A stretch of DNA of 64,000 nt, taken from NCBI GenBank assembly GCA_963677595.1, contig OY782041.1, positions 2,720,001-2,784,000 on the forward strand, in the 5' to 3' direction. A model generated the notes under the pieces. It was not told where the DNA came from. It worked only from the letters and a program-made list of their open reading frames with translations, and did not search any database. Source of the stretch: Spirochaetia bacterium (GTDB taxonomy: Bacteria; Spirochaetota; Spirochaetia; CAKZLE01). Shown here piece after piece: positions 18,833 through 39,286 of the stretch. The translations under genes were made by a program, and so were the position numbers. Numbering within the stretch: the stretch's first letter is position 1; every line of letters starts with the position of its first letter.

Positions 18833-19009
18833 ATCGTACCTCCCGGTCTGGATTGTCTCTGTATCCTTACTATACAACCACCTGCAACAGAACGCAACAA
18901 CTATCATCTATGAGGATTTTCCCCATACATCTTGGCTGCCTCTTGACCGGAACCCGTATCGAAGCCATGATAGGACCTAGGCGGTAATACGAATAGGAGA
19001 GAAGATCGT

Positions 19010-20248
19010 ATGAAACAGACAATTCCGTACGGACAGGGCATGGTGGAAGTCACCCTGCCCGGGCAGACCGTGAGTATCGAGCCGAAGGATGTGCCGGAGT
19101 ATAATGAGCAGGCCGTCCTGGCAGAGGCGATGAAGAACCCTGTAGGCGCTGGAAGCATCGAGGAGTTCCTCGCAGAAGGGGAGAAGGTCCTCATCATCGT
19201 CAACGACGGGACCAGGCCGACACCGACCGGTGCAGTCATGGAGTCGCTGCTGCCGCTGCTCGAGGGAAAGGACGTCACCGTCATGGTCGCAACCGGGGTA
19301 CACCGCGGTGCGACCGATAAGGAGATGAAGCGGATCCTTGGGCCGACCTATGAGGCCCTGAAGGATACCGTGGTCTCCCATGATGCCCGCAAGGACGAGG
19401 AGATGGTCTACCTCGGGGTCAGCAAGAACGGGACCGAACTCGCCGTGAACAAGGCCGTCATGGAGTCGGACCGGATCATCGCGATCGGGTCGGTCGAACC
19501 CCACTATTTCGCCGGCTATACCGGGGGCAGGAAGGCGATCATGCCCGGGGTGGCGGCATTCCGGTCGATCGAGATGAACCATAAGAATGCCCTCGACCCA
19601 CGGGCCAAGGCCCTTGCCCTCGAGGGGAACCCGGTCCATGAGGATATGATCGACGTGCTCGAACTCCTCGAGGAGAAGCAGATCTATGCGATCATGACCG
19701 TCATGAACAAGCACCACAAGGTCTATGCTGCCACTGCGGGGGACATCACCGACTCGTTCTATGCCGCGATAGACAAGGCGAACGAGGTCTTCTGCGTGGA
19801 CTTGGAATCGAAGGCTGACATCGTCCTCACCGTGGCGAAACCCCCGATGGACATCGACCTCTACCAGTCCCAGAAGGCGATGGACAATGCGAAGCTTGCC
19901 CTCAAGGAGGGAGGCATCATGATCCTGGTCTCCTCCTGTGCCGACGGGGTGGGGGAGAAGGCCTTCTATGACCTCCTCTCCTCCTGCGATACCGCAGCAG
20001 AGGTCCTTGAGAAGATCAAGGGAGAGTATCGCCTCGGGTACCATAAGGCCGGGAAGATGGCGGAAGTCATCAACATGGCCGATATCTGGGTCGTGAGCGA
20101 CCTCACTGATGAGCTGTGGAGCAGCATCTTCATCAGGCAGTTTCCCTCCATACAGGAGGCGATCGATGCCGCACTGGAGCAGAAGGGGAAAGATGCCTCC
20201 TTCGTATTCATGCCTGACGGCTGCGTGACCGTCCCGAGACTCGCCTGA
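19010..20248 (+). CDS. larA: Nickel-pincer-dependent lactate racemase (LarA) family alpha-hydroxyacid racemase/epimerase
   Basis: IIVNDGTRPTP, ATGVHR, SHDA, EPHYFAGYTGGRKAIMPG, NH, GNPVHEDM, DLYQSQKA. Confidence 0.88.
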   Translation: MKQTIPYGQGMVEVTLPGQTVSIEPKDVPEYNEQAVLAEAMKNPVGAGSIEEFLAEGEKVLIIVNDGTRPTPTGAVMESLLPLLEGKDVTVMVATGVHRGATDKEMKRILGPTYEALKDTVVSHDARKDEEMVYLGVSKNGTELAVNKAVMESDRIIAIGSVEPHYFAGYTGGRKAIMPGVAAFRSIEMNHKNALDPRAKALALEGNPVHEDMIDVLELLEEKQIYAIMTVMNKHHKVYAATAGDITDSFYAAIDKANEVFCVDLESKADIVLTVAKPPMDIDLYQSQKAMDNAKLALKEGGIMILVSSCADGVGEKAFYDLLSSCDTAAEVLEKIKGEYRLGYHKAGKMAEVINMADIWVVSDLTDELWSSIFIRQFPSIQEAIDAALEQKGKDASFVFMPDGCVTVPRLA

Positions 20249-20265
20249 CCCTACTACTGCAAGAG

Positions 20266-20290
20266 CCCCTGCCTGGAAATGAGGCAGGGG
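20266..20290 (+). terminator. Hairpin after larA
   Basis: CCCCTGCCT-GGAAATG-AGGCAGGGG followed by TGTTCTCT. Confidence 0.55.
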
Positions 20291-20363
20291 TGTTCTCTCT
20301 AAGCTCGAATGGGGCTCACAGGTAATCCGGATAAAAAATCCTGACAAAAAATACATCTTTTTA

Positions 20364-20406: not shown

Positions 20407-20422
20407 AAGAATACGTAGTCAT
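20407..20422. promoter_or_regulatory. Putative LacI-family operator 1
   Basis: AAGAATACGTAGTCAT, near-palindrome with central CG just downstream of the -10. Confidence 0.65.
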
Positions 20423-20545
20423 GCAGATACGTATATCACCTTATGAAAATCAATAGAATAGTATGTATATGGTTCATAATTACGTTAAAGATTATACTAT
20501 ATAAAGTAGATAGTCTCTAACTATGTAGAATATGTTTATCTATAG

Positions 20546-20561
20546 AAGATTACGTAGTCAT
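20546..20561. promoter_or_regulatory. Putative LacI-family operator 2
   Basis: AAGATTACGTAGTCAT, 15/16 identical to operator 1. Confidence 0.62.
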
Positions 20562-20636
20562 ATAGCTATGTGTTGTTTTTACCCTGTCCACCTGGTGGCC
20601 GGGATAAGAGATCAAAAAAGGAAAAAGGAGAGAATT

Positions 20637-21647
20637 GTGAAACGATTACGAGTAATTGCATTGATGATCTGTCTGGTACTTGTCTCTGTGTCAGTCTTTG
20701 CCGGCGGGCAGCAGGAAGATGGTGTGAAAGTCATACGAGCTGGGCATGGTCAGCCGGTTGGAACAGGCCTGCACCAGGGATTCGTCTATTTCAAGGAAGC
20801 TGTCGAGAAGAAATCAAACGGAAAGATCACCGTCGAGATATATGACAGTGGGCAGTTAGGTGGAGACCGGGAGTTGACCGAAGGGGTACAGCTCGGGAAT
20901 GTGACGATGACTGCAGTATCCGCAGCTAACCTTGGGACGTTCGCCAAGGAGTTCTATGTCCTTGATACCTATTTCATGTTCAGGGATAGAGAGCATGTCT
21001 ACAATGTCCTTGATGGTGCTGCAGGACAGATGATGCTTGACGGGCTTACTGAAAAGGAGATCAAGGGGCTTGGCTACTGGGAGAATGGATTCAGGCATCT
21101 GACGAACAGCAAGCATGCGGTCAATGAGACTGCAGATATGAAGGGGCTGAAGATCAGGGTCCCTGACAACCCAGTACAGATCGCTGCCTGGAACTCTGTA
21201 GGGGCCGGTCCTGCACCGATGGCATGGGGAGAGCTCTTCACCGCCCTTCAGCAGAAGGCGCTCGATGCCCAGGAATCGACACTGGAATCGATCCAGACGA
21301 TGAAGTTCTACGAAGTACAGCCCTACATGACCCTTACCGGTCATAAGTACAGCCCCTATGTCATCCTGATGGGAAAATCCTTCTATGAGGGCCTGACTGC
21401 TGAGGAGAAGAAGTGGGTTGACGAGGCTGTCCTCGAGTCCATCGACAAACAGCGGGCATTCGCCCAGGAGAATGAGAAGAAGGCGCTTGATGCGATCGCT
21501 GCTTCCGGCAAGACCGAGATCGGTGAGCTTACCAATGAGGCAAAGATGGAATTCAGGCAGAAGATGTCCACGATCTACAGTATGGTAGAGGAGAAGAGCG
21601 GGAAGGAGATGTTCGACCTCTTCGTCTCCGAAGTCGACAAGTATTAG
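20637..21647 (+). CDS. dctP: TRAP transporter substrate-binding protein
   Basis: GTG start after AAGGAGAG; signal peptide FAGGQQE; GQLGGDREL, YWENGFRH, GLKIRVP, ELFTALQQ. Confidence 0.92.
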   Translation: MKRLRVIALMICLVLVSVSVFAGGQQEDGVKVIRAGHGQPVGTGLHQGFVYFKEAVEKKSNGKITVEIYDSGQLGGDRELTEGVQLGNVTMTAVSAANLGTFAKEFYVLDTYFMFRDREHVYNVLDGAAGQMMLDGLTEKEIKGLGYWENGFRHLTNSKHAVNETADMKGLKIRVPDNPVQIAAWNSVGAGPAPMAWGELFTALQQKALDAQESTLESIQTMKFYEVQPYMTLTGHKYSPYVILMGKSFYEGLTAEEKKWVDEAVLESIDKQRAFAQENEKKALDAIAASGKTEIGELTNEAKMEFRQKMSTIYSMVEEKSGKEMFDLFVSEVDKY

Positions 21648-21666
21648 GACGCGACCAAATCGCGTA

Positions 21667-21693
21667 GGGGCTGTCTCTTCGGGAGACAGCCTC
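21667..21693 (+). other. Intercistronic hairpin after dctP (mRNA stabiliser or partial terminator)
   Basis: GGCTGTCTC-TTCGG-GAGACAGCC. Confidence 0.55.
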
Positions 21694-21715
21694 TTCGAAC
21701 ACAAGGCTGGTTATT

Positions 21716-22294
21716 ATGAAAGTTTTACGTTGGTTGGATGACTATTTCGAAGCAATTTTCCTGATCGTGACCCTGTTCAGCATGAGTATCATCATCGCGG
21801 TCCAGGTCTTCTTCCGGTATGTGCTGCTCAACTCGATCTCCTGGTCTGAAGAGATCGCACGGTACCTCTTCATCTACATGGTCTATTTCGGGATATCATA
21901 TGCGGTCAGGACGAACCGTCATATCAGGGTGGAAGTGGTCCTGAACATGCTGCCAGACCGCGGCCGCAAGATCCTGACGATCATTGCTGATATCTTCTTC
22001 ATGATCTTTGCAACAGTGGTAACCGTGAAATCAGGTGTCGTTGTTGGAACGATCAGCAGGTTGGGGCAGATCGCTGGTGTGACGGGGATCCCGATGGGGA
22101 TCATCTACAGTGCCGTACCGGTCGGATACGGAATGGTCGTCGTACGGCTCCTGCAGAACCTGTATCATAAGATAACCCATATCAACGCTCCGTATGAGGA
22201 GTTCATCCATAGGAAGAATCCCGGGGAACGTTCCGGGGTCGGTACGGAGACTGTCGATGAGGCAGTCGCTGAAGCAGCCGGCGCTGCAGAGTAG
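21716..22294 (+). CDS. dctQ: TRAP transporter small permease
   Basis: QVFFRYV, SWSEEIARYLFI, HIRVEV; four TM segments. Confidence 0.9.
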   Translation: MKVLRWLDDYFEAIFLIVTLFSMSIIIAVQVFFRYVLLNSISWSEEIARYLFIYMVYFGISYAVRTNRHIRVEVVLNMLPDRGRKILTIIADIFFMIFATVVTVKSGVVVGTISRLGQIAGVTGIPMGIIYSAVPVGYGMVVVRLLQNLYHKITHINAPYEEFIHRKNPGERSGVGTETVDEAVAEAAGAAE

Positions 22295-22303
22295 GAGAGT
22301 AGT

Positions 22304-23587
22304 ATGGCAACAGCACTTTTATTCGGGGGCTTCATCTTCTTTGCGGCAGTAAGTGTGCCGATAGGTATATCGCTTGGTATGGCCGTGATGCTGGTGATCA
22401 TTGCGACCGGGACGGTGGATCTCACGTTCATGGCCCAGGGACTGACAACCGCAATGGACTCCTTTCCGCTGATGGCGGCCCCCTTCTTCATCCTGGCCGG
22501 TGAGGTCATGGGCCGTGGAGGTATCTCGCGACGCCTGCTCAAGCTGGCAGATATCGCATTCGGCAGGTTCACGGGAGGCCTGGGGCTGGTGACCGTAGTC
22601 GCCTGCATGCTCTTTGCCGCTATATCAGGCACGGGTTCCGCCACCGTGGCCGCGATCGGATCGGTCATGGTACCCGAGATGCTCAAGAAGGGGTATAACA
22701 AGGGGTTCGCAGGAGGGCTGGTCGCATCCTCCGGTGCGATCGGGGCTATGATCCCCCCGAGTATCACGATGGTCATCTATTGTGTCACGGCAGGTGTCTC
22801 CATCACAGCGCTCTTCAGCGCCGGGATCATACCGGGGATCGTCATAGGGATCTCCCTGATCATCTATACGCTGATCTTCTCGAAGAAGAACGGTTATACC
22901 GGTTCTACGAAGCGGTATAGCGGCAAGGAGGTACTCGCATCAGTCAAGGAGGGCATCCCGGCCATCCTGATGCCGGTGATCATCCTCGGCGGGATCTATG
23001 GGGGCGTCTTCACCCCGACTGAAGCTGCTGCCGTGGCAGTAGTCTATGGGTTCATCGTCGCCTTGTTCGTCTATAAGGAGATATCCTTCAAGGATATCGG
23101 TGATATCGTGCTGAAATCAGCACTGATGACCTCTGTCATCCTGGTCATCATCGGGACGTCTGCAGGCTTCGGCAGGATCCTGGCCCTCGAACGCATCCCG
23201 CAGGTGATCGCAAATGCCATAGTCGGGTTCTCCTCGAGTAAGATCGTCATCCTGCTGCTGCTGAACCTGCTGCTGCTCTTCGTGGGAACCTTCATGGAGA
23301 CCCTGGCAGCCGTCATCATCCTGACTCCCATCCTGCTTCCTATCGTGACGAGCTTCGGGATGAGCCCTGTCCACTTCGGTGTCATGATGGTCATCAACCT
23401 GGCTATCGGGTTCGTGACCCCGCCGCTGGGAGCCAACCTCTTCGTGACCACCCAGATCATGGACATCACGTTCGAGGAGGTGTCGAAGGCGATCATACCA
23501 TTCATCATAACCATGGTGATAGCCCTGCTGTTCATCACCTTCGTCCCTGTCATATCGATGGGGCTGCCGACACTATTAGGATTCTGA
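22304..23587 (+). CDS. dctM: TRAP transporter large permease
   Basis: SFPLMAAPFFILAG, FAAISGTGSAT, IPPSI, GGVFTPTEAA, GFVTPPLG. Confidence 0.94.
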   Translation: MATALLFGGFIFFAAVSVPIGISLGMAVMLVIIATGTVDLTFMAQGLTTAMDSFPLMAAPFFILAGEVMGRGGISRRLLKLADIAFGRFTGGLGLVTVVACMLFAAISGTGSATVAAIGSVMVPEMLKKGYNKGFAGGLVASSGAIGAMIPPSITMVIYCVTAGVSITALFSAGIIPGIVIGISLIIYTLIFSKKNGYTGSTKRYSGKEVLASVKEGIPAILMPVIILGGIYGGVFTPTEAAAVAVVYGFIVALFVYKEISFKDIGDIVLKSALMTSVILVIIGTSAGFGRILALERIPQVIANAIVGFSSSKIVILLLLNLLLLFVGTFMETLAAVIILTPILLPIVTSFGMSPVHFGVMMVINLAIGFVTPPLGANLFVTTQIMDITFEEVSKAIIPFIITMVIALLFITFVPVISMGLPTLLGF

Positions 23588-25653: not shown

Positions 25654-25698
25654 TGGACAAGTAACAGGGAGGTATGTATAATAAGACTACGTAATCAT
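25654..25698 (+). promoter_or_regulatory. Promoter of catabolic operon with overlapping operator 4
   Basis: TGGACA(25654-59)-17-TATAAT(25677-82) immediately followed by AAGACTACGTAATCAT(25683-98). Confidence 0.72.
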
Positions 25699-25739: not shown

Positions 25740-26813
25740 GTGACCATGGAACAGCCGACCGTATCATATACCGACCTGAACGAATACCTGACCCGGCTCT
25801 ATGAGGCTGCAGGGGTGCCGACAGCGGATGCCGCTGTCTGTGCGGACTGCACGGTGAAGACCAATCTCTGGGGAGTCGATTCCCATGGGGTGCTCCGTAC
25901 CCCCGATTACATCGAACGGCTCCTGAAGAAGGCCGTCAACCCTGAGCCTGATGTAAAGCTTGTCGCGAAGGCTGACGGGCCCTTCTCCCTGATGGACGGT
26001 GATGCCGGCATGGGCTATGTCGTTGGGACGAAGGCTATGGAGGCCGCGATGGAGAAAGCGGAGAAGTTCGGGATCGGGATCGTCCTCGTGAAGAACAGCA
26101 ACCACTTCGGGGCTGCCTCCCTCTTTACCCGGATGGCGGCAGAGAAGGGGATGCTCGGGATCGCGACGACTAACGTGAGGCCCAACATCGGGATGCCTGG
26201 GGGGAAGGCCCCGGTCACCGGGAACAACCCGCTGGCGCTCGCTGCCCCGATCGGGCAGCCGTACCCGTTCTCCCTCGATATCTCGATGAGTGCCGTATCA
26301 GGGGGGAAGATCCTGCTGGCGCAGAAGAAGGGCGAGAAGATCCCCACGACCTGGGCGATCGACAAGGACGGGAACCCGACCGACGACCCCTTCGCCGGGT
26401 TCGCCGGTATCCTGCTCCCTACCGGGATGCATAAGGGACTCGGGCTCTCCTTCTTCATCGACATCGTCACCGGCGTCATGAGCGGCGGCCCCTTCCTCCA
26501 GGATATCAAGAGCATGTACAAGGACGCCGATGAGCCATCGCTCACCTCACACCTTGTGTGTGCGATCGACCCGACCATGTTCCAGAGTCGCGAGGAGTAC
26601 GAGGCGAGCATGGAGAAGTGGGTCGGCATGATCAAGGCGACCCCGATGGCAGACCCCGAGGCGACGCAGATCATTCCCGGGGAGATCGAGTACATGCTCG
26701 AGAACAAGCGAAAGACGGAAGGGATCCCGGTCCCGCCCCAGTTGATGAAGGACCTTGCAGCCCTGGACGAGAGACTCGGAATCTCTTCAGGACTGACAGC
26801 AGATAACCAATAA
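25740..26813 (+). CDS. Ldh_2 (malate/L-lactate/sulfolactate/ureidoglycolate dehydrogenase) family oxidoreductase
   Basis: GVDSHGV, DG..GMG, SNHFGA, GNNPLA, LDISMS, HKGLGL, IPGE. Confidence 0.9.
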   Translation: MTMEQPTVSYTDLNEYLTRLYEAAGVPTADAAVCADCTVKTNLWGVDSHGVLRTPDYIERLLKKAVNPEPDVKLVAKADGPFSLMDGDAGMGYVVGTKAMEAAMEKAEKFGIGIVLVKNSNHFGAASLFTRMAAEKGMLGIATTNVRPNIGMPGGKAPVTGNNPLALAAPIGQPYPFSLDISMSAVSGGKILLAQKKGEKIPTTWAIDKDGNPTDDPFAGFAGILLPTGMHKGLGLSFFIDIVTGVMSGGPFLQDIKSMYKDADEPSLTSHLVCAIDPTMFQSREEYEASMEKWVGMIKATPMADPEATQIIPGEIEYMLENKRKTEGIPVPPQLMKDLAALDERLGISSGLTADNQ

Positions 26814-26837: not shown

Positions 26838-27752
26838 ATGAAGAAACAGACAGAGTTCAAGCTGAACAAGAGAGATTCCGTATGGTTCCAGGAGAACAGC
26901 GCCCATGTAGTCGTCAACTACGCGAAAGAGGTATGTGACGTGGCGATCCTCCCGCTTGGGGCGATCGAGCAGCATGCTGCCCATGCACCGACCGGGATGG
27001 ATACCTACAACGCCATCGGCATCGCGGAGAAGGTCGGCGAGGCTACCGGTGCGATGGTCCTTCCCTGCCCGATGTACGGCTCCCATCCCCACCACCACTG
27101 GGGCATGCAGGGAACCATCCCACTGACCTATGAGACCCATATCGGGCTGATCATGGATATCATCAGGGGTGCTTCCGTTGCCGGCTATAACAAGTTCATC
27201 ATCATCTCTGCTCACGGCCAGGTCTCATCGGTGATCGTCGCCACCCACAAGCTCGGGATCGAGGGACTCTTCACCATCTCCTCTACCTGGTATGACTTCC
27301 TCCGTGACGACAAGAACGTCCTCGAGGACTATATGTGGCATGCTGACGAGGCAGAGACCTCGGTCGGGCTCTACCTCTATCCCCAGTGGATCCAGATGGA
27401 CCTCGCCGAGGCAGGCGGCGGTACCCCGCTGATCGACTCCAAATGGAAGATCGCCCCGGGACAGGTATGTGGACCCGGTATGCTCTACCACTTCGAGGGA
27501 ACCTTCGCGCTTCCCGAGAAAGATGACCTGGAAAACGGTGTCATCGGTGACCCAACTAAGGCTACCCTCGAGAAGGGCGAGGCCTGTGTCGAGCGGGTCG
27601 TCGGCTACTATGCTGAACTCATCGAGGAGATCAAGACGAAGTTCCCCATCGGGATCAACCCCCTTGGCTTCAGGAACCCGGGCGGCTATGCGACATCTGC
27701 TGACATCGTATATGACAAAGATCACGACGAGAAAGGACAGCTGAAGAAATGA
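26838..27752 (+). CDS. Creatininase-family hydrolase, IolN (3-dehydro-scyllo-inosose hydrolase)-like
   Basis: ILPLGAIEQHAAHAP.G.D, GSHPHHHWGMQGTI, AHGQ (instead of GHGGN), HADEAETS, GVIGDPTKAT. Confidence 0.8.
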   Translation: MKKQTEFKLNKRDSVWFQENSAHVVVNYAKEVCDVAILPLGAIEQHAAHAPTGMDTYNAIGIAEKVGEATGAMVLPCPMYGSHPHHHWGMQGTIPLTYETHIGLIMDIIRGASVAGYNKFIIISAHGQVSSVIVATHKLGIEGLFTISSTWYDFLRDDKNVLEDYMWHADEAETSVGLYLYPQWIQMDLAEAGGGTPLIDSKWKIAPGQVCGPGMLYHFEGTFALPEKDDLENGVIGDPTKATLEKGEACVERVVGYYAELIEEIKTKFPIGINPLGFRNPGGYATSADIVYDKDHDEKGQLKK

Positions 27753-28582
27753 GACTGAAGGACAAAGTAGCGGTGATCACCGGCGGTACCAAGGGTATCG
27801 GGCTGGGGATCGCTATCGAGTTCGCGAAGGAGGGGGCGTCTGTCGTGATCGGCGGGCGCAACCCCGAGACCGGAGAGGAGGGGCTCGCAGAGCTCCTCGC
27901 CCTCGGCGGCGAGGCGATGTATGTTCCCTGCGACGTGGGGAACCTGGAGAGCCTGCAGAACATCATAGACAAGACCGTGGAACGGTTCGGCCGTGTCGAC
28001 ATCTACGTCTCCAATGCGGGGATCAACGACTCGCAGAAGACACCCTACCTGGAGATCACCCCCGAGCAGTACGACCGCATCATGGACGTGAACCTGCGGG
28101 GGATGTTCTTCGGGGACCAGTATGCGGCACGCGAGATGGTGAAGCAGGGGACCGGCGGGGCGATCATCAACATGTCCTCGGTCAACGCCTACCTGGCGCT
28201 CAACAGCCAGATGGTCTACACCACGAGCAAGGGCGGGGTACAGCAGCTGACGAAGGTACAGGCGGTGGACCTGGTCCCCTACGGGATCAAGGTGAACGCA
28301 CTTGCCCCGGGACCGATCGAGACCGAGCTCATGAGGCGGGTCGGGTCGGACAAGCAGCTGATGGACACGATCCTCTCCCGGACACCGATGGGACGGATCG
28401 GGACCCCGAAGGAGTGCGGGAGACTGGCAGTCTTCCTCGCATGCGAGGATTCCGACTTCATCATGGGACAGACGATCTACAACGACGGGGGACGAGGCTT
28501 CCAGGCCTTCCCGAACCCGGGCTACAAGACCGTTACCGACGAAGACTATGCACTGCTGCAGCAGATGAAAGAAGGCGAATGA
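27749..28582 (+). CDS. Short-chain dehydrogenase/reductase
   Basis: VAVITGGTKGIG, SNAG, NMSSV, YTTSKGG, VNALAPG, RTPMGRIG. Confidence 0.92.
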   Translation: MRLKDKVAVITGGTKGIGLGIAIEFAKEGASVVIGGRNPETGEEGLAELLALGGEAMYVPCDVGNLESLQNIIDKTVERFGRVDIYVSNAGINDSQKTPYLEITPEQYDRIMDVNLRGMFFGDQYAAREMVKQGTGGAIINMSSVNAYLALNSQMVYTTSKGGVQQLTKVQAVDLVPYGIKVNALAPGPIETELMRRVGSDKQLMDTILSRTPMGRIGTPKECGRLAVFLACEDSDFIMGQTIYNDGGRGFQAFPNPGYKTVTDEDYALLQQMKEGE

Positions 28583-30006
28583 GTATGAGATACCCGAAAG
28601 CAGGACTGATCACCTTCGGTGACCACAGAGGCCCCGAGTGGGCGAAAGTATTCGAGGGACTGACCGTGCCTCGCCATGAGAAGGCGGCACAGATCCTAGG
28701 GGAGCTCCCGCTGGAGCTGGTCTCGTTCCCGACGGTCGCACGTACCCGCGACGAGATCAATGAACAGGTGGATGCCCTCAAGCAGGCAGGGGTGGAGGTG
28801 TTCATCGCCCATACCCCCTGCTGGACCTCCCCGAACCTGGTCGTGCACGGGGTGCAGAGGATGGGGATCTATACCATCGTCCTCGGTAACCGCGACATGG
28901 GAACGCACGGCTGCGTCGGACTCTTCGGTGCCGCAGGGGCCCTTTCCCAGATCGGCAGCGAGCACAAGCGCATCAGGATGGACTATGAGACTCCCACCTA
29001 TGAGCAGAAGCTCCTGCCCATCATCAGGGCGGCCTCCGCAGCAGCACGGCTGAAGGGCTCGGTCATGGGACACTTCGGCGGGCGGTCCATCGGGATCGAC
29101 ACCGCGACCTTCGACCCGATGGGCTGGAGGAAGCAGTTCGGTGTAGATGTCGAGCATATCGACCAGGTCGAGATCCTGAGGATCGCAGAGACAATCGAAC
29201 AGGGGCGGATCGACAGGATGCGCACCTGGATCGAGCAGAATGCCAAAGAGGTCCTCTACAACGATGACAAGTTCACGAAGGAGAAATTCGACTTCCAGCT
29301 TGCCTGCTATATCGCGACGAAGGATATCTGCAGGGAATCGGGACTCGACTTCACGGCGATCAAGTGCATGCCGGAACTCTCGAACTCCTATGTACCCCAG
29401 TGCATGACCGCGACCTTCCTTCCCAATGACTATGACGGGGAAGAGGGCGAGAAGGATGCCATCGTCATGGCCTGTGAGGCCGATGCCGACGGGGCACTCA
29501 CCCAGCAGATCCTCAAGCTGCTCTCGGGCGGGATGCCGACCTTCTTCGCAGATGTCAGCCACATCGATGATGCACGGAAGACGATCTACTGCGTCAACTG
29601 CGGGGCAGTATGCGCCTGGTATGCCGGGCGGGATGCCGACCCCAACAAGAACCTCAACCAGATCGTGATCAAGCAGTCGATCAGGCCCGGAGGGGCTGCG
29701 ATCTCAGGCTTCTTCGCCGCAGAGGGACCGATGCAGCTCGCACGGCTCTATCGCGTGGACGGGAAGTACCGGATGGCGATCATCCCCTGCGATGCCGTCA
29801 CCCCGAGCGAGGAGATCCTCGATGAGTTCGTGGAGGCTCGCGGCCCGCACCAGCTCCCGGCACTCTTTGCCAAGGTCGATTTCGACCTGGATGCGTTCGT
29901 CGACGAGTACGGTTCCAACCATATCTCCGGTGTAGCCGGCGCATATGTCGAGGAACTCGTGGAACTCTGCCGCATGCTCGATATCGAGCCGGTCGTGTTC
30001 AGATAG
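28579..30006 (+). CDS. L-fucose/L-arabinose isomerase-family protein
   Basis: FGGRSIGI, FGVDVEHIDQ.EI, AIKCMPEL, ACEADADGALT, FADV, NCG, YGSNHI. Confidence 0.82.
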   Translation: MSMRYPKAGLITFGDHRGPEWAKVFEGLTVPRHEKAAQILGELPLELVSFPTVARTRDEINEQVDALKQAGVEVFIAHTPCWTSPNLVVHGVQRMGIYTIVLGNRDMGTHGCVGLFGAAGALSQIGSEHKRIRMDYETPTYEQKLLPIIRAASAAARLKGSVMGHFGGRSIGIDTATFDPMGWRKQFGVDVEHIDQVEILRIAETIEQGRIDRMRTWIEQNAKEVLYNDDKFTKEKFDFQLACYIATKDICRESGLDFTAIKCMPELSNSYVPQCMTATFLPNDYDGEEGEKDAIVMACEADADGALTQQILKLLSGGMPTFFADVSHIDDARKTIYCVNCGAVCAWYAGRDADPNKNLNQIVIKQSIRPGGAAISGFFAAEGPMQLARLYRVDGKYRMAIIPCDAVTPSEEILDEFVEARGPHQLPALFAKVDFDLDAFVDEYGSNHISGVAGAYVEELVELCRMLDIEPVVFR

Positions 30007-30017: not shown

Positions 30018-30803
30018 ATGGAAATAACCAATACGAACAGGGTCAAGAGACTCCTGAAAGAGGGAAAGCGCGTGACCGGGGCCTGGGCCCAGGCTGCGAG
30101 CAACATCACCACGGAGATCCTCGCAGATGCGGGCTTCGACGTGATCATGGTCGACATGGAGCATGGTCCCGGGAACATCCTGACCCTGATCTCACAGATC
30201 CAGGGGATGAAGGGACAGCCGACCGTACCATTCGTGCGGGCTCCCTGGAATGACTTCGTGCAGATCAAGAAGATCCTCGATGCCGGCACCTTCGGGCTGC
30301 TTGTCCCCTACGTTAACACGAAAGAAGAGGCAGAAGCGGCAGTCAAGGCTGTCAAATACCCGCTGACCGGGATCAGGGGAGTCTCAGGCTCACCGAGAGG
30401 GCCCCACTTCGGGAACAACTCGATGGACTACCTCAAGCAGGCGAATGATGAGATCTTCCTCATGACTGCAGTCGAGACCCTCGAGGCGGCAGAGAACATC
30501 GATGAACTGCTCACCGTCGAGGGACTCGACGGGATCTTCATCGGGCCGATGGACCTTGCCACGAGCATGGGCTACTTCGGGGACGCCTCAGTCCCTGAAG
30601 TCCAGGCCGTGATCAGGAAGGTGGAAGAGAAGGTCTTCGCCAGCGACAAGATCCTGGCTACCGTCGGCGGCAGCTGGGAGCAGGCGACAGCGAAGTACGA
30701 GCGAGGATACCAGCTGCTGATGCTGATGTCCGACACCGTCTCGCTCGGTGCCTATGCACGGGGCCTCGTGAACAGTTTCTCCCAGGCATTCCCTGAGAGA
30801 TAG
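30018..30803 (+). CDS. HpcH/HpaI-family class II pyruvate aldolase
   Basis: GFDVIMVDMEHGP, VRAPWND...IKKILDAG, KYPLTGIRG, VET, DGIFIGPMDLA.SMG. Confidence 0.9.
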   Translation: MEITNTNRVKRLLKEGKRVTGAWAQAASNITTEILADAGFDVIMVDMEHGPGNILTLISQIQGMKGQPTVPFVRAPWNDFVQIKKILDAGTFGLLVPYVNTKEEAEAAVKAVKYPLTGIRGVSGSPRGPHFGNNSMDYLKQANDEIFLMTAVETLEAAENIDELLTVEGLDGIFIGPMDLATSMGYFGDASVPEVQAVIRKVEEKVFASDKILATVGGSWEQATAKYERGYQLLMLMSDTVSLGAYARGLVNSFSQAFPER

Positions 30804-30837
30804 AGCCTCAAGACTATAACGAATGATGGAGAGACAT

Positions 30838-31854
30838 ATGGGAAAGGTAAAAGTAGGAGTAGCAGGATACGGCGTGATCGGGCAGCGACTGGCAGACGGG
30901 GTAGCGGCCCAGGGAGACATGGAGCTCGTAGGTGTTGCCGACATAGCCCCGACGATATCGGTGCGGGCGCTCAAGCACCGGGGCATGCCGTATAAGATGT
31001 TCAACGTGGACCCGAAGAACACGTCGATGGCAGATGCCGGGATCCCGGTATCGGGGAGCTTCGAGGAACTCGTACAGGAGTGCGACATCATGCTCGACAG
31101 CTCACCTGGCGGCATCGGCGCGCGGAACAAGGAGCTGTACGTCAAACATGGGACGAAGGCCGTGTTCCAGGGCGGCGAGAAGAACGATATCGCAGACGTC
31201 TTCTTCCACGGGTATGCGAACTACGAGCAGGGCATCGGGGCGGACTACCTGAAGCTCACGAGCTGCAATACCACCGGGCTCATCCGTGCGGTAGATATGC
31301 TCGACCGGAGTGTAGGCCTTGAGAAAGTGGCGATCACGATCATCCGTCGGGTGGCAGACCCGGGTGACTACCATCGGGGGCTGACCAATGCCCTGCAGGT
31401 GGAGAAGGCACCGAGCCACCAGGCACTCGACCTGATGACGATCATGCCCCATATCCCGTGTACGGGAATCCTGGTACACACCCCGGTGACCCACGGCCAC
31501 ATCATCACGGTGACGGCAACGCCGAAGAACAAGATCGAGAAGGAAGAGCTGTGGGAGATGGCGCAAAACCACCCGCGGATCATGCCGGTACGACTGGCAG
31601 ACGGGTTCTTAGGGAACGCATCGATGTTCCGCTGGGCACGCGATATCGGGAATGCACGAGGTGACATGTATGAGATCGGGCTGTGGGAAGAGTCGATCGT
31701 GAAGTCAGGAGATGACATCATGTTCGCGATCAACATCCCGCAGGAGTCCGTGGTGATCCCGGAGAACATCGACGGGATCAGGGCCGCGATGGGGATGCAG
31801 GCGACCAGGGAAGAGGGGACGGCAGCAACGAACCAGTACCTGGGCATGAAGTAA
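30838..31854 (+). CDS. gap: Type II (archaeal-type) phosphorylating glyceraldehyde-3-phosphate dehydrogenase homolog
   Basis: VAGYGVIGQRLADGV..Q.DM.LVGV, FQGGEK, SCNTTGL, IRRVADP, QESVVIPENIDGIRA. Confidence 0.88.
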   Translation: MGKVKVGVAGYGVIGQRLADGVAAQGDMELVGVADIAPTISVRALKHRGMPYKMFNVDPKNTSMADAGIPVSGSFEELVQECDIMLDSSPGGIGARNKELYVKHGTKAVFQGGEKNDIADVFFHGYANYEQGIGADYLKLTSCNTTGLIRAVDMLDRSVGLEKVAITIIRRVADPGDYHRGLTNALQVEKAPSHQALDLMTIMPHIPCTGILVHTPVTHGHIITVTATPKNKIEKEELWEMAQNHPRIMPVRLADGFLGNASMFRWARDIGNARGDMYEIGLWEESIVKSGDDIMFAINIPQESVVIPENIDGIRAAMGMQATREEGTAATNQYLGMK

Positions 31855-31864
31855 GAGAGCACCG

Positions 31865-33133
31865 ATGAAAGAGCATACGTTAGGGTTCAAGCCGATGGAG
31901 GAATTTGATGTCTCGGGTAAGCGGGTATTGCTGCGGGTGGACATCAACTCCCCGGTGGACCCGAAGACGAAGGCAATAGTCAACGAGAACCGGCTGGAGA
32001 AGAGCGTGCCGACGGTGAAATGGCTGCTCGATAACGGGGCGAAGCTTGCGTTGATCGCGCACCAGGGGGATACGCTCGATTACCAGAACCTGATCCCGTT
32101 GAGAGAGCATGCGCAGAAGCTGAGTCAGAAACTCGGCCGGAAGGTCAGGTACATCGACGATGTATGCGGGCCGATGGCGCAGAGCGCGGTAGAGGCATTG
32201 GATGAGGGTGAAGCGGTACTGTTGGGGAACCTGCGGTATCTGTGCGAGGAGATCTCGACCTTCGAGGATGCGGTGAAGCTGAAACCGGAAGAGATGCTCG
32301 ACACCTGGCTGGTGCGGTCATTGGCCCCGCTGTTCGACCTCTACGTCAATGACGCATTCGCCGCGGCGCACCGGAACTGCCCGAGCATGGTGGCCTTCCA
32401 GGAGCTGCTGCCGAGTGCTGCGGGACCGCTGTTCTTTAACGAGGTATCGGCACTCAACCAGGTGATGACTGCCCCTTCCCACCCATCGGTGTTCGTGCTC
32501 GGGGGCGCGAAGATCTCGGATGCGTTCGGGATGATGGAGCAGGTGTTATCAAACGGGACAGCAGACGAGATCCTGACCTGCGGGGTGACCGGGGAAGTGT
32601 TTCTCATCGCCTCAGGACAGTCCCTTGGCAGCAAGGTCGATGAGTTCCTGGCGGGGAAGGGGCTGACGAAGTTCATCGGTCAGGCAAAGGAGCTGCTGGA
32701 TACCTATGGGGCCAAGATCAGGATGCCCGAAGATCTGGCGTATGAACAGGAAGGAGCGAGAGCGGAGATCAGCATCTCTGAGCTCCCTGCCGAACTGATG
32801 TACCTGGATGTGGGGCATAAGACGATCGCCTCCTACCGGGAGAGCATCAACGGAGCAGGGACGGTCTTCGTGAACGGGCCTGCGGGCGTATTCGAGGATG
32901 AGAAGTTCGAGGTCGGGACGAGAGAGATCTGGCAGGCGATCGCGAAGGCGCCTGGCTATACGGTGATCGGGGGCGGGGATAGCGTGAGCGCGACCTCGCG
33001 GTTCTGTGATCCTGCAGATATGGATTATATCTGCACCGCAGGTGGTGCCATGGTGCGGTACCTGTCAGGGAAGAAGCTGCCGCTTATCTCCGCGATGGAG
33101 AAGGCAGGAAAAAAAATGTATACGAACCCATAA
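31865..33133 (+). CDS. pgk: Phosphoglycerate kinase homolog, archaeal-like
   Basis: GKRVLLRVDINSP, AHQG, NLRY, YVNDAFAAAHR, LGGAKISD, NGPAGVFE, IGGGDS, CTAGGA. Confidence 0.9.
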   Translation: MKEHTLGFKPMEEFDVSGKRVLLRVDINSPVDPKTKAIVNENRLEKSVPTVKWLLDNGAKLALIAHQGDTLDYQNLIPLREHAQKLSQKLGRKVRYIDDVCGPMAQSAVEALDEGEAVLLGNLRYLCEEISTFEDAVKLKPEEMLDTWLVRSLAPLFDLYVNDAFAAAHRNCPSMVAFQELLPSAAGPLFFNEVSALNQVMTAPSHPSVFVLGGAKISDAFGMMEQVLSNGTADEILTCGVTGEVFLIASGQSLGSKVDEFLAGKGLTKFIGQAKELLDTYGAKIRMPEDLAYEQEGARAEISISELPAELMYLDVGHKTIASYRESINGAGTVFVNGPAGVFEDEKFEVGTREIWQAIAKAPGYTVIGGGDSVSATSRFCDPADMDYICTAGGAMVRYLSGKKLPLISAMEKAGKKMYTNP

Positions 33134-33141
33134 CCGCCGAA

Positions 33142-33183
33142 GGGGGGGCACCTCCGTTGGATGTGCCCCCCCGCTTTCTTTCT
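33142..33183 (+). terminator. Intrinsic terminator after pgk
   Basis: GGGGGGGCAC-N11-GTGCCCCCCC then GCTTTCTTTCT. Confidence 0.7.
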
Positions 33184-33228
33184 ATGATCGGCAGTTGGAT
33201 GAAATAGGATAGGATAGGAGAGAGAACC

Positions 33229-33891
33229 ATGAAAAAGAAGGTAGGAGTGATCCATACATTCCTCTACTCGGTAGAGGATCTGAAAGCCCTGTTCGCAGAG
33301 CTCATACCGGAAGTCGAGATGGTCAACATCATCGATGACAGCCTACTCAAGGAAGTGCTGTCAAACGGGGGGCCATCGCCGGCAGTCGTGAGGAGGATGA
33401 CTGAATATGCGGTAGAGCTGGAAGAGCTCGGCTGCGACATGATCCTCAACCAGTGTTCGTCGGTGGGTGAAGTATCTGAGATCGCGCAGAAGTCAGTCTC
33501 GATCCCGTACGTGAAGGTCGATGAACCGATGGCCCATGAGGCTATCTCATTAGGGAAGAAGATCGGTGTGGTCGGGACTGCATACACCACCCTGGGGCCA
33601 TCGGTGCGGCTGGTCGAGAATGTAGCTAAGAAACTTGGCCGGGATGATGTGGTGGTCAATACCTGCTACGCGGACGGAGCCTACGATGCGCTGCTCAATG
33701 AAGGTGACAAGCCCAAGCATGACCGGATCCTTATGGAGACGATCGACAAGGCCTGTGCTGAGAACGAGGTCGTCTGCCTTGCTCAGGGATCGATGATCTC
33801 CCTGGTAGAGGTCTGCAAGAGCAAGCCGGTTCCGGTACTCCACAGTTTCCGCAGCGGGGTCGCCCAGATCCGGGATATACTTGCGCTCTGA
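33229..33891 (+). CDS. Asp/Glu/hydantoin racemase-family protein (single-Cys, AQxSM subtype)
   Basis: VIHT, NIIDDSLL, ILNQCSSVG, KVDEPMA, TTLGPS, LAQGSM. Confidence 0.8.
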   Translation: MKKKVGVIHTFLYSVEDLKALFAELIPEVEMVNIIDDSLLKEVLSNGGPSPAVVRRMTEYAVELEELGCDMILNQCSSVGEVSEIAQKSVSIPYVKVDEPMAHEAISLGKKIGVVGTAYTTLGPSVRLVENVAKKLGRDDVVVNTCYADGAYDALLNEGDKPKHDRILMETIDKACAENEVVCLAQGSMISLVEVCKSKPVPVLHSFRSGVAQIRDILAL

Positions 33892-33992
33892 CGAGTTGGT
33901 AGGATATAATCTATCCAAAGGACCGGGGGGCACATGCCTCACGGTCCCGAGGTATGGTCTGACGAACAGCATCCTCCTGGAGAGTGACAGGC

Positions 33993-35009
33993 ATGGCAAA
34001 GAACAACAAGCGAGTATCATCCAAGGACGTGGCACGGGAGGCAGGGGTCTCCCAGTCGACGGTTTCGCGGGTATTCAATGACAGCGGGATCCCGGTATCG
34101 GAGGACAAGAAGGCACTGGTCCTCGAGACTGCTGCCCGGCTCGGGTACCGCCCGAGCCTGATCGCGCGATCGCTGAACCAGCAGCGCACCAGCATGATCG
34201 GCCTGCTGATCCGGAACTTCTCCAACCAGTTCTATATCGATGCCATGAAGATGTTCACGGAGAAGTTCCAGGAGCATGGGTACACGATCATGCTCTTCAA
34301 CATCAAGGATGATGAGAACGTCGAACAGGACCTGATTCGGGCGATGGAGTATCAGGTAGACGGCCTGGTCATCACCTCCGCGAGCCTGGACTCCGACATC
34401 GTGGGTCAGTTCCATACCTATGAGACGCCGGTCATCCTCTTCAACCGCCTCAATGAGGGGCAGAGCGTGAACGCGGTCTGCTGCGACAATGTCGCAGGCG
34501 GGGAGGCTGTCGCTGAGTATCTGGTCTCAAGGGGCCATAAGAAATTAGTCTATGTCGCCGGTGAGGAGGACTCCTCGACGAACCGCGACAGGAAGAAGGG
34601 GTTCTTCTCCTATGCGAAGTCTGCAGGCCTCGATGACATCATCGTCGTGCATGGGGATTTCTCCTATAAGTCGGGGCTTGCCGCGGCTGGGGAGCTGATC
34701 GCTTCCGGGCGTGAGTTCGACGGGGTGTTCTGTCCTTCCGATACCATGGCGCTCGGGTTCATGGATTATATCCACCATAAGACCGACCTTTCGATCCCGG
34801 GGGATTTCTCCCTTGTCGGGTTCGACGGTTTGCCGGTGCCGGACGAGGATATCTATCCGCTGACAACCTATGAGCAGCCGCTCGGGCGGATGGTCCAGCG
34901 GACGGTGGACTTCATGATCGAGAAGATCGAGAATTTCTCCCCGGACCCGGTCTCCTACCTCTTCAACGGAAGGATCCTTGAACGGGGGTCGGTGAAGGAC
35001 CGGAACTGA
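33993..35009 (+). CDS. LacI-family transcriptional regulator
   Basis: VSSKDVAREAGVSQSTVSRVF, LGYRPSLIARSL, N.FY, YQVDG, SLVGFDG, LTT. Confidence 0.94.
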   Translation: MAKNNKRVSSKDVAREAGVSQSTVSRVFNDSGIPVSEDKKALVLETAARLGYRPSLIARSLNQQRTSMIGLLIRNFSNQFYIDAMKMFTEKFQEHGYTIMLFNIKDDENVEQDLIRAMEYQVDGLVITSASLDSDIVGQFHTYETPVILFNRLNEGQSVNAVCCDNVAGGEAVAEYLVSRGHKKLVYVAGEEDSSTNRDRKKGFFSYAKSAGLDDIIVVHGDFSYKSGLAAAGELIASGREFDGVFCPSDTMALGFMDYIHHKTDLSIPGDFSLVGFDGLPVPDEDIYPLTTYEQPLGRMVQRTVDFMIEKIENFSPDPVSYLFNGRILERGSVKDRN

Positions 35010-35031: not shown

Positions 35032-35922
35032 ATGAGAGAGAGAACCATCGAGGCGGTAACAACTGCCTTCACCCACTACATTACCGATTCCAGTGAACTG
35101 TACCCCGTACGTACAGGCTTCAGGTTCCTCGAGGGACCCGTATGGGATGCCGCAGAAGCACGTCTCTTCTTCAATGACATCAAGGGCAATGCCATCTATG
35201 TCTACCGGGAGGATGGGACGCTTGAGACCTTCCGGGACAACAGCTACCTTGCCAACGGCAACACCCTCGATCGGGAGGGGAGCCTCATCACCTGTGAGCA
35301 TGGGACGAGCAGGGTCTCGAAGACGACGCGCGACGGGGAGTACTCGGTCCTTACCTCACAGTACCAGGGGAAGGAGCTCAACAGCCCGAACGACGTGATC
35401 GTCCGCAGTGACGGGCTCATCCTCTTCACCGACCCGACCTCCGGGCGGGGGGCAGGCTTCGGGATCCCGAGGACCCCCGAACTCGATTTCCTGGGGGTAT
35501 ACTCCTATGATCCGGCTACCGGTGAGACGAAGCTTCTCATCGATGACTTTACCTTCCCCAACGGGCTCTGCCTCTCGGCTGATGAGCGGCTGCTCTATGT
35601 CAACGATACCCGAGACCAGCTGATCAAAGTCTATGATATCGACGGGGAAGGGAAGGTATCGAACGGGAGGCTCTTTACCAAGTTCGTCGAGGACCTCCCT
35701 GGCAAGGCTGACGGCCTGAAGATCGACAGCGAGGGTAATGTCTTCTCGACCGGTCCCGGGGGTATTCTCATCTTCGATGCGGCAGGCACGCTGATCGGGA
35801 GGATCTACATCCCCGAACAGGCGGCGAACTTCTGCTGGGGCGGGGAGGACCTGAAGACCCTCTACATCACGGCCTCGACCACGCTCTATGCGATCAGGCT
35901 CGCAGTCCCGGGCAGGGCTTGA
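35032..35922 (+). CDS. SMP-30/gluconolactonase family protein
   Basis: FLEGPVW, LITCEHG, LNSPNDV, PNGLCLS, ADGLKIDSEGN, ANFCWGG.D.KTLYITA. Confidence 0.92.
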   Translation: MRERTIEAVTTAFTHYITDSSELYPVRTGFRFLEGPVWDAAEARLFFNDIKGNAIYVYREDGTLETFRDNSYLANGNTLDREGSLITCEHGTSRVSKTTRDGEYSVLTSQYQGKELNSPNDVIVRSDGLILFTDPTSGRGAGFGIPRTPELDFLGVYSYDPATGETKLLIDDFTFPNGLCLSADERLLYVNDTRDQLIKVYDIDGEGKVSNGRLFTKFVEDLPGKADGLKIDSEGNVFSTGPGGILIFDAAGTLIGRIYIPEQAANFCWGGEDLKTLYITASTTLYAIRLAVPGRA

Positions 35923-35980
35923 CTACGGGGCCTGCTGTTCACCTATTGCCATAGCCCCCTATTTGTATTACTGTCTTTGT

Positions 35981-37321: not shown

Positions 37322-38025
37322 TGAAACAGTATGCGATCATAGGAATGAGTACATTCGGTAAGTATATGCTCGAGGAGCTCGCGAACATCGACTGCGAGGT
37401 CCTTGTCATCGACAAGAAGCGGGATTTGATCGAAGCCCTGAAAGACAAGGTGACCAGCGCGTATATCGCGGACGCGATCAACGAGGAGACGATCTTTCGC
37501 TTGGTCCCGAAGAGCATCGATGCAGCGATCATCGATCTCGGGGACCGGATCGAGGTCTCGGTCCTGGTGACCAACTACCTGAAGAAGCTGGGCATCAAGA
37601 ACATCATCGCGAAGGCCCAGTCCCGTGAACACGGGGAGATCCTCGAGATCATCGGGGCGACCCACGTTGTCTTCCCCAACCGGGAAGCCGCCAAACGGCT
37701 GGTGCCGATGATCCTCTCAGAGGGACTGTTCAACTACTTCCCGATCGGGGATGACCTCGTCATCGCGGAGGTGAAGATTCCCGAGGAGTATGCCGGCAAG
37801 ACGATCGTCGAGGCTGACCTCCGGAGGAATGCAGGGGTGAACATCATCGCCTTGAAGCGTGATGACGGGTACCACCAGTTCATCAACCGGGACTATACCC
37901 TCGATCATGAGGAAGTGGTCCTCGTGGCATGCTCACCCCAGGCTCTCGCCGCATTCAGCGGGGCTCCCATCGCCGAACCTGAAGTGAAGAAGCGGGGAGC
38001 CGGCCTCATGAATCTCTTCGGGTAG
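37321..38025 (+). CDS. trkA: TrkA/KtrA potassium uptake regulatory (RCK) protein
   Basis: YAIIGMSTFG, VLVID, IIAKA...HGEILEIIGA..VVFP, C-terminal TrkA_C (DLRR..GVNIIALK). Confidence 0.9.
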   Translation: MKQYAIIGMSTFGKYMLEELANIDCEVLVIDKKRDLIEALKDKVTSAYIADAINEETIFRLVPKSIDAAIIDLGDRIEVSVLVTNYLKKLGIKNIIAKAQSREHGEILEIIGATHVVFPNREAAKRLVPMILSEGLFNYFPIGDDLVIAEVKIPEEYAGKTIVEADLRRNAGVNIIALKRDDGYHQFINRDYTLDHEEVVLVACSPQALAAFSGAPIAEPEVKKRGAGLMNLFG

Positions 38026-38034
38026 GGGAGCGTA

Positions 38035-39258: not shown

Positions 39259-39286
39259 GGGGAATCATCTGCGAGGAGGGTGTGCG

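Follow-up and report, generated by a model that had tools for sequence, protein, structure and literature searches.

In the inositol route of Thermotoga, IolN is the hydrolase that opens the ring of diketo-inositol, and in archaeal type II glyceraldehyde-3-phosphate dehydrogenases (GAPDHs) a PSHH[G/A] motif is what we take to be the substrate-phosphate element. In pig phosphoglycerate kinase (PGK), Arg65 is one of three arginines that hold the 3-phosphate, as described in PMC7729029. Oxidation of carnitine-derived malic semialdehyde gives D-malate according to measurements in PMC11353897, and malate kinase and malate semialdehyde dehydrogenase activities were described in PMC5481828 as previously unreported. 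Here we analyze a 64,000-nucleotide stretch of DNA from a Spirochaetia bacterium (GCA_963677595.1, contig OY782041.1, positions 2,720,001 to 2,784,000; hereafter the window), in which adjacent genes encode a GAPDH-like and a PGK-like protein with altered substrate motifs, and propose that this pair probably oxidizes D-malic semialdehyde ((R)-3-hydroxy-4-oxobutanoate) to D-malate with a gain of ATP.

If true, many anaerobe genes annotated as GAPDH and PGK, in the thousands, encode a different enzyme pair, whose kinase would be the first natural enzyme to act on malate and whose combined reaction would be a substrate-level phosphorylation of a new kind. The pair would also explain inositol use in genomes that have iolG/E/D/B and are without iolC/iolJ, a gap noted in gut metagenomes (PMC13617567). 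Our literature search, in which subscription journals were thinly covered, found no description of a PGK with the motif HQGD paired with a GAPDH with His-Gln (HQGD-PGK and HQ-GAPDH), nor of transketolase cleavage in inositol catabolism. A protein of the cultured Kosmotoga pacifica falls in the same 90% cluster as an HQGD-type PGK. New from the present genome are a fourfold mosaic cassette, an operator-linked regulon and the outline of an aldolase-fed route.

Altered substrate motifs in a GAPDH-PGK pair

30838..31854, plus strand: GAPDH-like gene, 338 aa, type II, with Cys143, His194-Gln195 and Asp35; predicted phosphorylating NAD+-dependent D-malic semialdehyde dehydrogenase
31865..33133, plus strand: PGK-like gene, 422 aa, archaeal-type, with Asp69; predicted D-malyl-1-phosphate:ADP phosphotransferase

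Open reading frames (ORFs), family cut-offs and Protein Data Bank (PDB) matches agree with the initial annotation of a type II GAPDH and an archaeal-like PGK directly after an HpcH aldolase gene. The GAPDH-like protein is above both type II cut-offs (NF003251, 391.7 versus 185 bits; TIGR01546, 294.9 versus 232.9), and its four PDB matches are all type II enzymes, with 2czc at the top. Its longest ORF begins at 30823; a start at 30838 gives 338 aa, and nearly all of the best 120 of 5043 relatives are 337–343 aa long. Those 120 were the matches inspected, and the remainder includes true archaeal GAPDHs. The PGK-like protein scores 362 bits to PF00162 and is predicted to adopt a two-domain fold (predicted local distance difference test 89.4, template-modeling score 0.81 to 2cun), with Pyrococcus horikoshii 2cun as the top PDB match by sequence and by fold.

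The catalytic motif of the GAPDH-like protein (S142-C143-N-T) is intact, as first annotated, and SCNT recurs in all 120 of the best matches. At P192-S-H-Q-A, the three solved type II enzymes shown have His-His where the window protein has His-Gln, and H194-Q195 is kept in 120 of these 120 matches. Of the change from PSHHG to PSHQA that was initially read as altered G3P (glyceraldehyde 3-phosphate) binding, the H-to-Q part is diagnostic; the G-to-A part is not, because the solved type II enzyme 1b7g reads PSHHA. Asp35 in the coenzyme loop, where solved enzymes have Lys-Thr, is likewise present in all 120 and suggests NAD+ use, the loop being presumably of the NAD type.

The PGK-like protein carries the motifs R24-D26-N28, R43, H66-Q-G-D69, R124 and H169-R170. 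Asp69 stands at the position of pig Arg65, confirming the HQGDT reading of the initial annotation, and leaves incomplete a basic patch (pig His62, Arg65, Arg122 and Arg170) whose other members are kept; D26, N28, R43, H66, R124, H169, R170 and K216 are all retained, in line with the annotated RVDIN, Arg43, NLR and AHR residues. No other basic residue takes the place of the arginine in the aligned loop (residues 67–75). Asp69 is fixed in 29 of 29 aligned family members, while distant archaeal-type representatives have Arg (103 of 116) or Lys (2 of 116), and in a FastTree phylogeny (151 rows, sequences of 360–480 residues retained) every Asp sequence lies in one 41-member clade with support 0.985 and no Arg; the substitution is therefore not a matter of chance. 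The family loop HQGDTLDY is invariant, and an insert follows residue 129. By sequence comparison, the features of the pair are real and fixed across a wide clade, and the two proteins would appear to retain GAPDH/PGK-like chemistry, but each departs from its family in one substrate-binding feature.

Divergent sister PGKs of the form HQGD[S/T]-[L/I]-DY (42–45% identity) occur with transketolase in small-genome relatives (L199:9869-14005; L200), and further sisters carry HQGS or HQGG at the Asp69 site. In two loci PGK is fused in frame to LarA as an 848-aa protein (L026:9953-12499; L105:11583-14129).

The pair is accessory and present in four copies

A separate canonical gap-pgk-tpi set, for which the initial annotation had proposed a check, was found at C1:3786.5-3789.5 kb, with the sole triose-phosphate isomerase (TPI) gene of the genome. 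Of 28 genomes reached via related loci, 27 have a further PGK (25 whole, 2 in pieces). The pair is therefore accessory. It occurs four times on contig C1, at 2750.8 (the window), 938, 3556 and 634 kb, as 2.3-kb cassettes (937-939k, 3555.7-3558k and 633-636k, plus 2750.8k). Proteins of the other three copies are 97–98% (GAPDH) and 91–95% (PGK) identical to those of the window. DNA identity among the copies is 90–93% and does not extend beyond the two genes; only the 938-kb copy shares more, about 180 upstream bases that include the 3' end of hpcH. The identity is patchy, and because 200-base stretches that are 100% identical join different pairs of copies, the patchwork suggests gene conversion, possibly ongoing. 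GAPDH copies differ pairwise at 33–51 synonymous versus 5–11 non-synonymous codons; by this measure they are conserved at the protein level. One copy lies near a transketolase, a PfkB kinase and ABC genes, a second near a lactonase, ABC and TRAP importers and a PfkB kinase, and a third near two transketolases and inositol genes.

An assembly artefact was rejected as the source of the four copies, given their differing flanks and their level of DNA identity. In run X1, possibly made from the source sample, depth along the contig is about 38 and climbs to 114–294 over the pair, where loose ends lead into other flanks.

Neighboring genes point to malate

A scan of genome contigs yielded 48 pair loci from spirochaetes (the closest relatives), Firmicutes, Desulfospira and one gammaproteobacterium. 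HQGDTLD is found in 46 of them (one remaining ORF is truncated, one was not extracted). HQGD-PGK and HQ-GAPDH, whose co-occurrence the initial annotation had proposed as a test, stand together in 45, and the other three contigs end no more than 42 bases upstream of pgk. Malate-handling genes are present in 32 loci (LarA in 29, malic enzyme in 12, tartrate/D-malate dehydrogenase in 3), against a background of 3.8% of 21-kb windows of this genome with a malate-type gene. Split transketolase, in 19 loci, is the most frequent enzyme neighbor after LarA; at least two iol genes occur in 16, a racemase-like gene in 8, DeoC in 4 and a 4-aminobutyrate-aminotransferase-like gene in 2, and no TPI match was found in the 48. 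HpcH accompanies the pair in only six, and the general tie to aldolases that was first supposed is not supported.

All 20 neighboring LarA proteins tested match the LarAH6 family best, 13 of them above its cut-off, and a His-Lys malate-racemase signature is present in 27 of 28 LarA ORFs examined, the 28th being truncated. LarAH6/Mar2 is described as a measured malate racemase (PMC7583248), and His-Lys as the specificity signature of malate racemases (PMC11770544). Table S1 of PMC7583248 lists malic enzyme, and not GAPDH or PGK, under LarAH group 6; the table places PGK in group 4, and GAPDH together with TPI in group 17. Both tartrate-dehydrogenase neighbors tested pass TIGR02089, and all three such loci are without LarA. 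Within 10-kb flanks, LarA accompanies three of the six HpcH loci; in the window, it begins at 19010.

19010..20248, plus strand: LarA-family protein, best family LarAH6 malate racemase, best PDB match Mar2 6d6z

Aligned to 6d6z, the window LarA has the His/Gln-Lys specificity pair and the catalytic and cofactor-binding His and Lys. The genome encodes six LarA homologues (C1: 2739.0k, 718.3k, 2032.4k, 2016.2k, 3300.9k and 1706.0k). This larA, GAPDH Asp35 and the three further pair copies were missed by the initial annotation. A minus-strand ORF at 18977-20356 was rejected as a gene, being a shadow of larA.

In four loci (L033, L042, L061 and L064), gap-pgk-transketolase adjoins an opposite-strand deoC and a phosphomutase gene, and larB is present in all four genomes. 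The pair adjoins thiamine-pyrophosphate-dependent E1 alpha/beta genes in L034/L035 (Desulfospira) and L043, and L034/L035 have an aldehyde dehydrogenase between gap and pgk.

Proposed conversion of D-malic semialdehyde to D-malate and ATP

We infer malic semialdehyde as the substrate because malate-handling genes stand in 32 of the 48 loci. The compound shares the 2-hydroxy-aldehyde head of D-G3P and ends in a carboxylate where G3P has its phosphate. The GAPDH-like enzyme would convert D-malic semialdehyde, NAD+ and phosphate to D-malyl-1-phosphate, Cys143 forming a thioacyl intermediate as in GAPDH, and the PGK-like enzyme would pass the phosphate to ADP, giving D-malate and ATP. His66, Arg124 and Arg170 of the latter may grip the terminal carboxylate, and Asp69 in place of Arg would disfavor a phosphate dianion. 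D-malate as product would explain the racemase or D-malate dehydrogenase next door: it could be racemized by a LarAH6-type enzyme and then used by malic enzyme, or be oxidized by D-malate dehydrogenase. ATP formation from an aldehyde other than G3P, as initially suggested, thus finds support in sequence and context; the aldehydes then named do not, since the context points to malic semialdehyde.

Three upstream contexts appear to converge on this compound. In inositol operons, transketolase acting on the IolB product 2-deoxy-5-keto-gluconate would yield malic semialdehyde without IolC/IolJ; above-cut-off IolC is found in only 2 of 17 iol genomes with the pair, and not in this genome. In the two aminotransferase loci, the aldehyde could arise by transamination of 4-amino-3-hydroxybutyrate. 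In the window, the last enzyme of a ring-opening route, the HpcH aldolase, would supply the C4 unit, releasing either malic semialdehyde itself or its ketone isomer 4-hydroxy-3-oxobutanoate, to be converted by a second isomerase; the ketone route is slightly ahead. Among 401 genomes searched, three from Firmicutes have the ring-opening operon and canonical PGKs only, with no HQGD-PGK; their operon includes an aldehyde:ferredoxin oxidoreductase (AOR), joined in two of the three by malic enzyme.

Several observations weigh against this proposal. Many of the 48 loci are close kin, and the counts overstate their independence. Sixteen loci, some on short contigs, have no malate gene; L033, L042, L061 and L064 have only DeoC and transketolase among the queried genes, and the two Desulfospira loci have a tartronate-semialdehyde-reductase-like gene (below cut-off) instead. 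Two of the other three copies (B and C) have a PfkB kinase gene a short way upstream, and the initial remark that no sugar kinase is present is true of the window operon alone. LarAH6-type racemases also epimerize tartrate (PMC7583248). The window LarA scores 404.2 bits against an NF052593 (LarAH6) cut-off of 500, although this is still its best family. Where larA adjoins the pair, larB was found in 7 of 26 genomes, versus 9 of 11 of the genomes where it does not, and larB, larC and above-cut-off larE were not found in this genome (95.4% complete). LarA proteins in such genomes may scavenge their cofactor or obtain it by another route. The sole tartrate-dehydrogenase-like match in this genome is 39% identical and lies in a 926-codon frame. 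A structure of the yeast PGK mutant R65Q exists (1qpg), and since this mutant reportedly keeps activity on 3-phosphoglycerate, loss of the arginine alone is no proof of a new substrate. Finally, the C4 nature of the aldolase product is itself deduced, and we know of no linear C7 substrate that would yield malic semialdehyde directly via HpcH.

A predicted ring-opening operon as probable feed of the window pair

20409..20420, second copy 20548-20559: operator-like palindrome GAnTACGTAnTC, before dctP
20532..23587, plus strand: TRAP importer dctPQM (dctP start uncertain)
25685..25696: operator-like palindrome GAnTACGTAnTC, before the ldh2...pgk operon
25740..26813, plus strand: Ldh_2-family dehydrogenase, predicted 2-hydroxyacid to 2-oxoacid step
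26838..27752, plus strand: creatininase-family hydrolase, closest to IolN, predicted ring C-C hydrolase
27749..28582, plus strand: short-chain dehydrogenase (SDR), predicted lactol-to-lactone step
28585..30006, plus strand: L-fucose-isomerase-like protein, predicted ketose-to-aldose step
30018..30803, plus strand: HpcH/HpaI-family pyruvate aldolase, below all four matched NCBIfam cut-offs, predicted C4-unit source
33134..33185, plus strand: terminator-like hairpin with U-rich tail, between pgk and the racemase-like gene
33229..33891, plus strand: Asp/Glu-racemase-family protein with Cys at the first catalytic position (NQCSS), candidate isomerase between the aldolase product and malic semialdehyde
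33984..35009, plus strand: LacI-family regulator, likely regulator of the operon
35032..35922, plus strand: SMP-30/gluconolactonase-family (SGL) lactonase

The creatininase-family hydrolase scores 153.5 bits to IolN (3-dehydro-scyllo-inosose hydrolase, NF041098; cut-off 245) and is not a member; the Ldh_2 protein scores highest, below cut-off, to L-sulfolactate dehydrogenase; and no PDB sequence relative was found for the L-fucose-isomerase-like protein. Atlas searches with the hydrolase and the racemase-like protein returned known families only. A metagenome scan with the hydrolase gave 80 loci, many short or near-identical, with two recurring gene sets in which single functions are swapped: Ldh_2 for a D-2-hydroxyacid dehydrogenase, SDR for a Zn-dehydrogenase, the fucose-isomerase-like for an IolB-like isomerase, SGL for a metallo-beta-lactamase lactonase, and HpcH for a LigK-like aldolase. 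These recurring swaps suggest an order of ring hydrolysis to a ketose acid, isomerization, oxidation via a lactone, a further oxidation to a 2-oxo acid and aldol cleavage, in what we predict to be an undescribed pathway that opens a methylated ring compound.

The operon ends in various ways: with the HQ-GAPDH/HQGD-PGK pair and LarA; with AOR (6 loci, 2 of them with malic enzyme); with a DUF1537 kinase for four-carbon acids (12 loci among those of at least 7 kb, mostly close gut kin); with a 4-hydroxybutyryl-CoA-dehydratase-like gene plus CoA transferase, crotonase and acyl-CoA dehydrogenase (4 loci); or with CoA transferase and thiolase. All of these would suit a C4 acid oxygenated at C3 and C4. 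A second copy of the upstream operon, without the pair, lies at C1:2209500-2225000 (L015), with TRAP, LacI, transaldolase-like, hydrolase, lactonase, Ldh_2, SDR, isomerase, HpcH and UroD-like genes.

Base composition would predict 1.7 copies of the palindrome GAnTACGTAnTC in this genome, and five are present. Two precede dctP and one precedes ldh2; of the remaining two, one lies ahead of a UroD/MtaA-like gene (736.7 kb) and the other ahead of an operon of cupin, hydrolase and hpcH genes (906 kb). Among 36 related loci, the 400 bases leading up to ldh2 contain it exactly in 15 and with one mismatch in 22, many of the loci without a hit having ldh2 inside the operon; the other pair loci, 670 kb in all, lack it. 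This putative operator would link importer, operon and methyltransferase-like (UroD/MtaA-like) gene as a regulon.

Close relatives of the racemase-like gene were found in 9 of 40 genomes. Eight of the nine are also eight of the nine pair-carrying genomes with the hydrolase, and in the ninth the gene belongs to another operon, where HpcH and the GAPDH follow it directly. None of the iol/transketolase loci of the 48-locus survey has the gene next to the pair, and cupins occur in the three Firmicutes AOR operons. Such a distribution is that expected of a ketol isomerase between aldolase and aldehyde oxidation, for which the protein is a candidate. Against this role, the eight genomes are related spirochaetes, genome G079 has hydrolase and pair without the gene, and the hairpin (-28 kcal/mol, z -3.58, none of 200 shuffles equally stable; missing from the output of a separate scan) separates it from pgk.

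As a tentative guess at the parent compound, the regulon could serve anaerobic breakdown of 4-deoxygadusol, the core of mycosporine sunscreens. This compound is an O-methylated 2-hydroxy-1,3-cyclohexanedione with a hydroxymethyl carbinol. It is a beta-diketone that bacteria form from mycosporines, as described in PMC3083659. Its ring would be demethylated and opened and the chain oxidized to a branched 2-oxo acid, which HpcH would split into pyruvate and 4-hydroxy-3-oxobutanoate; with the racemase-like protein as an analogue of TPI, the pair would then make D-malate and ATP, a carboxylate copy of lower glycolysis. Several features fit the guess: the operon has only the two dehydrogenases needed downstream and none for making a diketone, GAnTACGTAnTC also stands before the UroD/MtaA-like gene, and relatives have corrinoid proteins added to the operon. 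The other endings, whether with the 4-hydroxybutyryl-CoA-dehydratase-like gene, CoA transferases and thiolase, with DUF1537, or with AOR, malic enzyme and a cupin, would all be consistent with a C4 acid of the 4-hydroxy-3-oxo type. Several relatives also have SnoaL-like genes and an ABC importer in the operon. A similar set in this genome, at C1:2928228-2935143, consists of an ABC importer with four ORFs, of which two match the SnoaL-like query and the two shorter have no assignment; it has no operator, and its permease resembles that joined to the operon in L026 and L105. Against the guess, many human-gut contigs have the operon and no methyltransferase, and quinate-like or other cyclitol substrates are at least as likely for the gut versions. 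The same literature search found no account of genes for deoxygadusol catabolism.

Alternative substrates and roles

There is some small chance that the substrate is instead tartaric semialdehyde (a tetruronate), or any of a range of small 2-hydroxy aldehyde-acids, so that ATP would be made along with tartrate or with a number of acids. The tartrate side activity of LarAH6-type racemases, the name tartrate dehydrogenase for TIGR02089 enzymes, and the DUF1537 four-carbon acid-sugar kinases that end the same upstream operon in gut bacteria all favor it, and four copies in unlike operons suggest more than one feed. Malic enzyme in 12 of the 48 loci argues for malate, as does the aminotransferase context, which fits malic aldehyde only; and in the established inositol pathway IolB and IolD make a 2-deoxy compound, leading to the malic, not the tartaric, aldehyde.

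It is improbable that the pair works in mid-pathway, oxidizing a larger aldose-acid from the fucose-isomerase-like enzyme, with the aldolase last, for example on quinate-derived 4-carboxy-4-hydroxy-2-oxoadipate to give oxaloacetate. SDR is missing from several pair operons (L026, L027, L052, L105 and L108), a LigK/RraA-type aldolase replaces HpcH in L141, L181 and L182, and malic enzymes can decarboxylate oxaloacetate. SDR, lactonase and pair are nevertheless all in the window, genome G081 has a second operon copy with SDR (L196), the window copy is 91–98% identical to the copy beside transketolase and iol genes, and a malate racemase would be left without a role.

The initial suggestion of glyceraldehyde, lactaldehyde, tartronate semialdehyde or sulfolactaldehyde, oxidized to an acid with ATP, now seems very doubtful. 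In its favor, hpcH immediately precedes the pair and the families nearest to HpcH release aldehydes of this kind, Ldh_2 scores best, below cut-off, to L-sulfolactate dehydrogenase, and the two Desulfospira loci have the tartronate-semialdehyde-reductase-like gene. The retained Arg124, Arg170 and His66 of PGK suggest an anionic tail, against neutral aldehydes; tartronate, being achiral, needs no racemase; and neighboring LarA proteins carry the malate, not the lactate, signature.

That the two are ordinary G3P (or erythrose-4-phosphate) isoenzymes boosting flux from transketolase or aldolase products in sugar operons, as the above-cut-off GAPDH score, the kept basic residues of PGK, the frequency of transketolase and the PfkB and DeoC genes near some copies would allow, is highly unlikely given the Asp fixed at the phosphate-contact site from spirochaetes and Firmicutes to Desulfospira and a gammaproteobacterium, the lack of TPI beside the pair, the retained canonical genes and the malate genes in 32 of 48 loci.

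Other genes of the window

A formate-tetrahydrofolate ligase gene (17228-18907, minus strand) is divergent from larA; it would suit methyl-group disposal, and no operator was seen there. Between the TRAP genes and the operon, 23827-25295 holds two ORFs without a Pfam match, possibly one frameshifted gene, the first with a lipoprotein-like N-terminus. On the 3' side of the operon (35888-40282) lie trkH, trkA, arginine deiminase and ornithine carbamoyltransferase genes, in the same order as in L021.

Comparison with known systems

The window dehydrogenase shares with archaeal type II GAPDHs (2czc, 1b7g, 1cf2 and 2yyy) the family scores, the SCNT nucleophile, the IRR and QES motifs and an adjacent pgk, but has His-Gln for His-His and Asp35 for Lys-Thr, and is bacterial, accessory, multi-copy and placed among catabolic and malate genes. 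The kinase has the fold of known PGKs (PF00162; 2cun; pig and human) and differs in Asp69, the HQGDTLDY loop and the insert after residue 129.

Canonical and Dysosmobacter myo-inositol catabolism is matched by iolG/E/D/B beside 16 of the 48 relatives and near one copy in this genome. The published routes, however, use a kinase and C3-C4 aldol cleavage to 3-oxopropionate (PMC13311982, PMC13617567), and the main text of neither contains 'malate' or transketolase; the Dysosmobacter work was rejected as support for a transketolase route, C3-C4 cleavage being what it proposes. The Thermotoga IolG-IolM-IolN-IolO route resembles the window operon in that the creatininase-family hydrolase is nearest IolN; here the hydrolase is below the IolN cut-off and is followed by isomerase, dehydrogenase, lactonase, 2-hydroxyacid dehydrogenase and pyruvate aldolase, and related operons often have a corrinoid methyltransferase system.

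For the pair itself, the carnitine catabolism of Acinetobacter baumannii (PMC11353897) has the same proposed substrate and product, and there a beta-decarboxylating dehydrogenase removes D-malate; its enzyme takes the aldehyde straight to D-malate with no ATP, whereas a phosphorylating two-step conversion is proposed here. The engineered malate kinase and malate semialdehyde dehydrogenase of PMC5481828 likewise join malate, malyl-phosphate and the semialdehyde, but derive from aspartate kinase and Asd and run reductively on L-malate through the 4-phosphate, whereas the pair described here would be natural and would run oxidatively through the 1-phosphate to D-malate.

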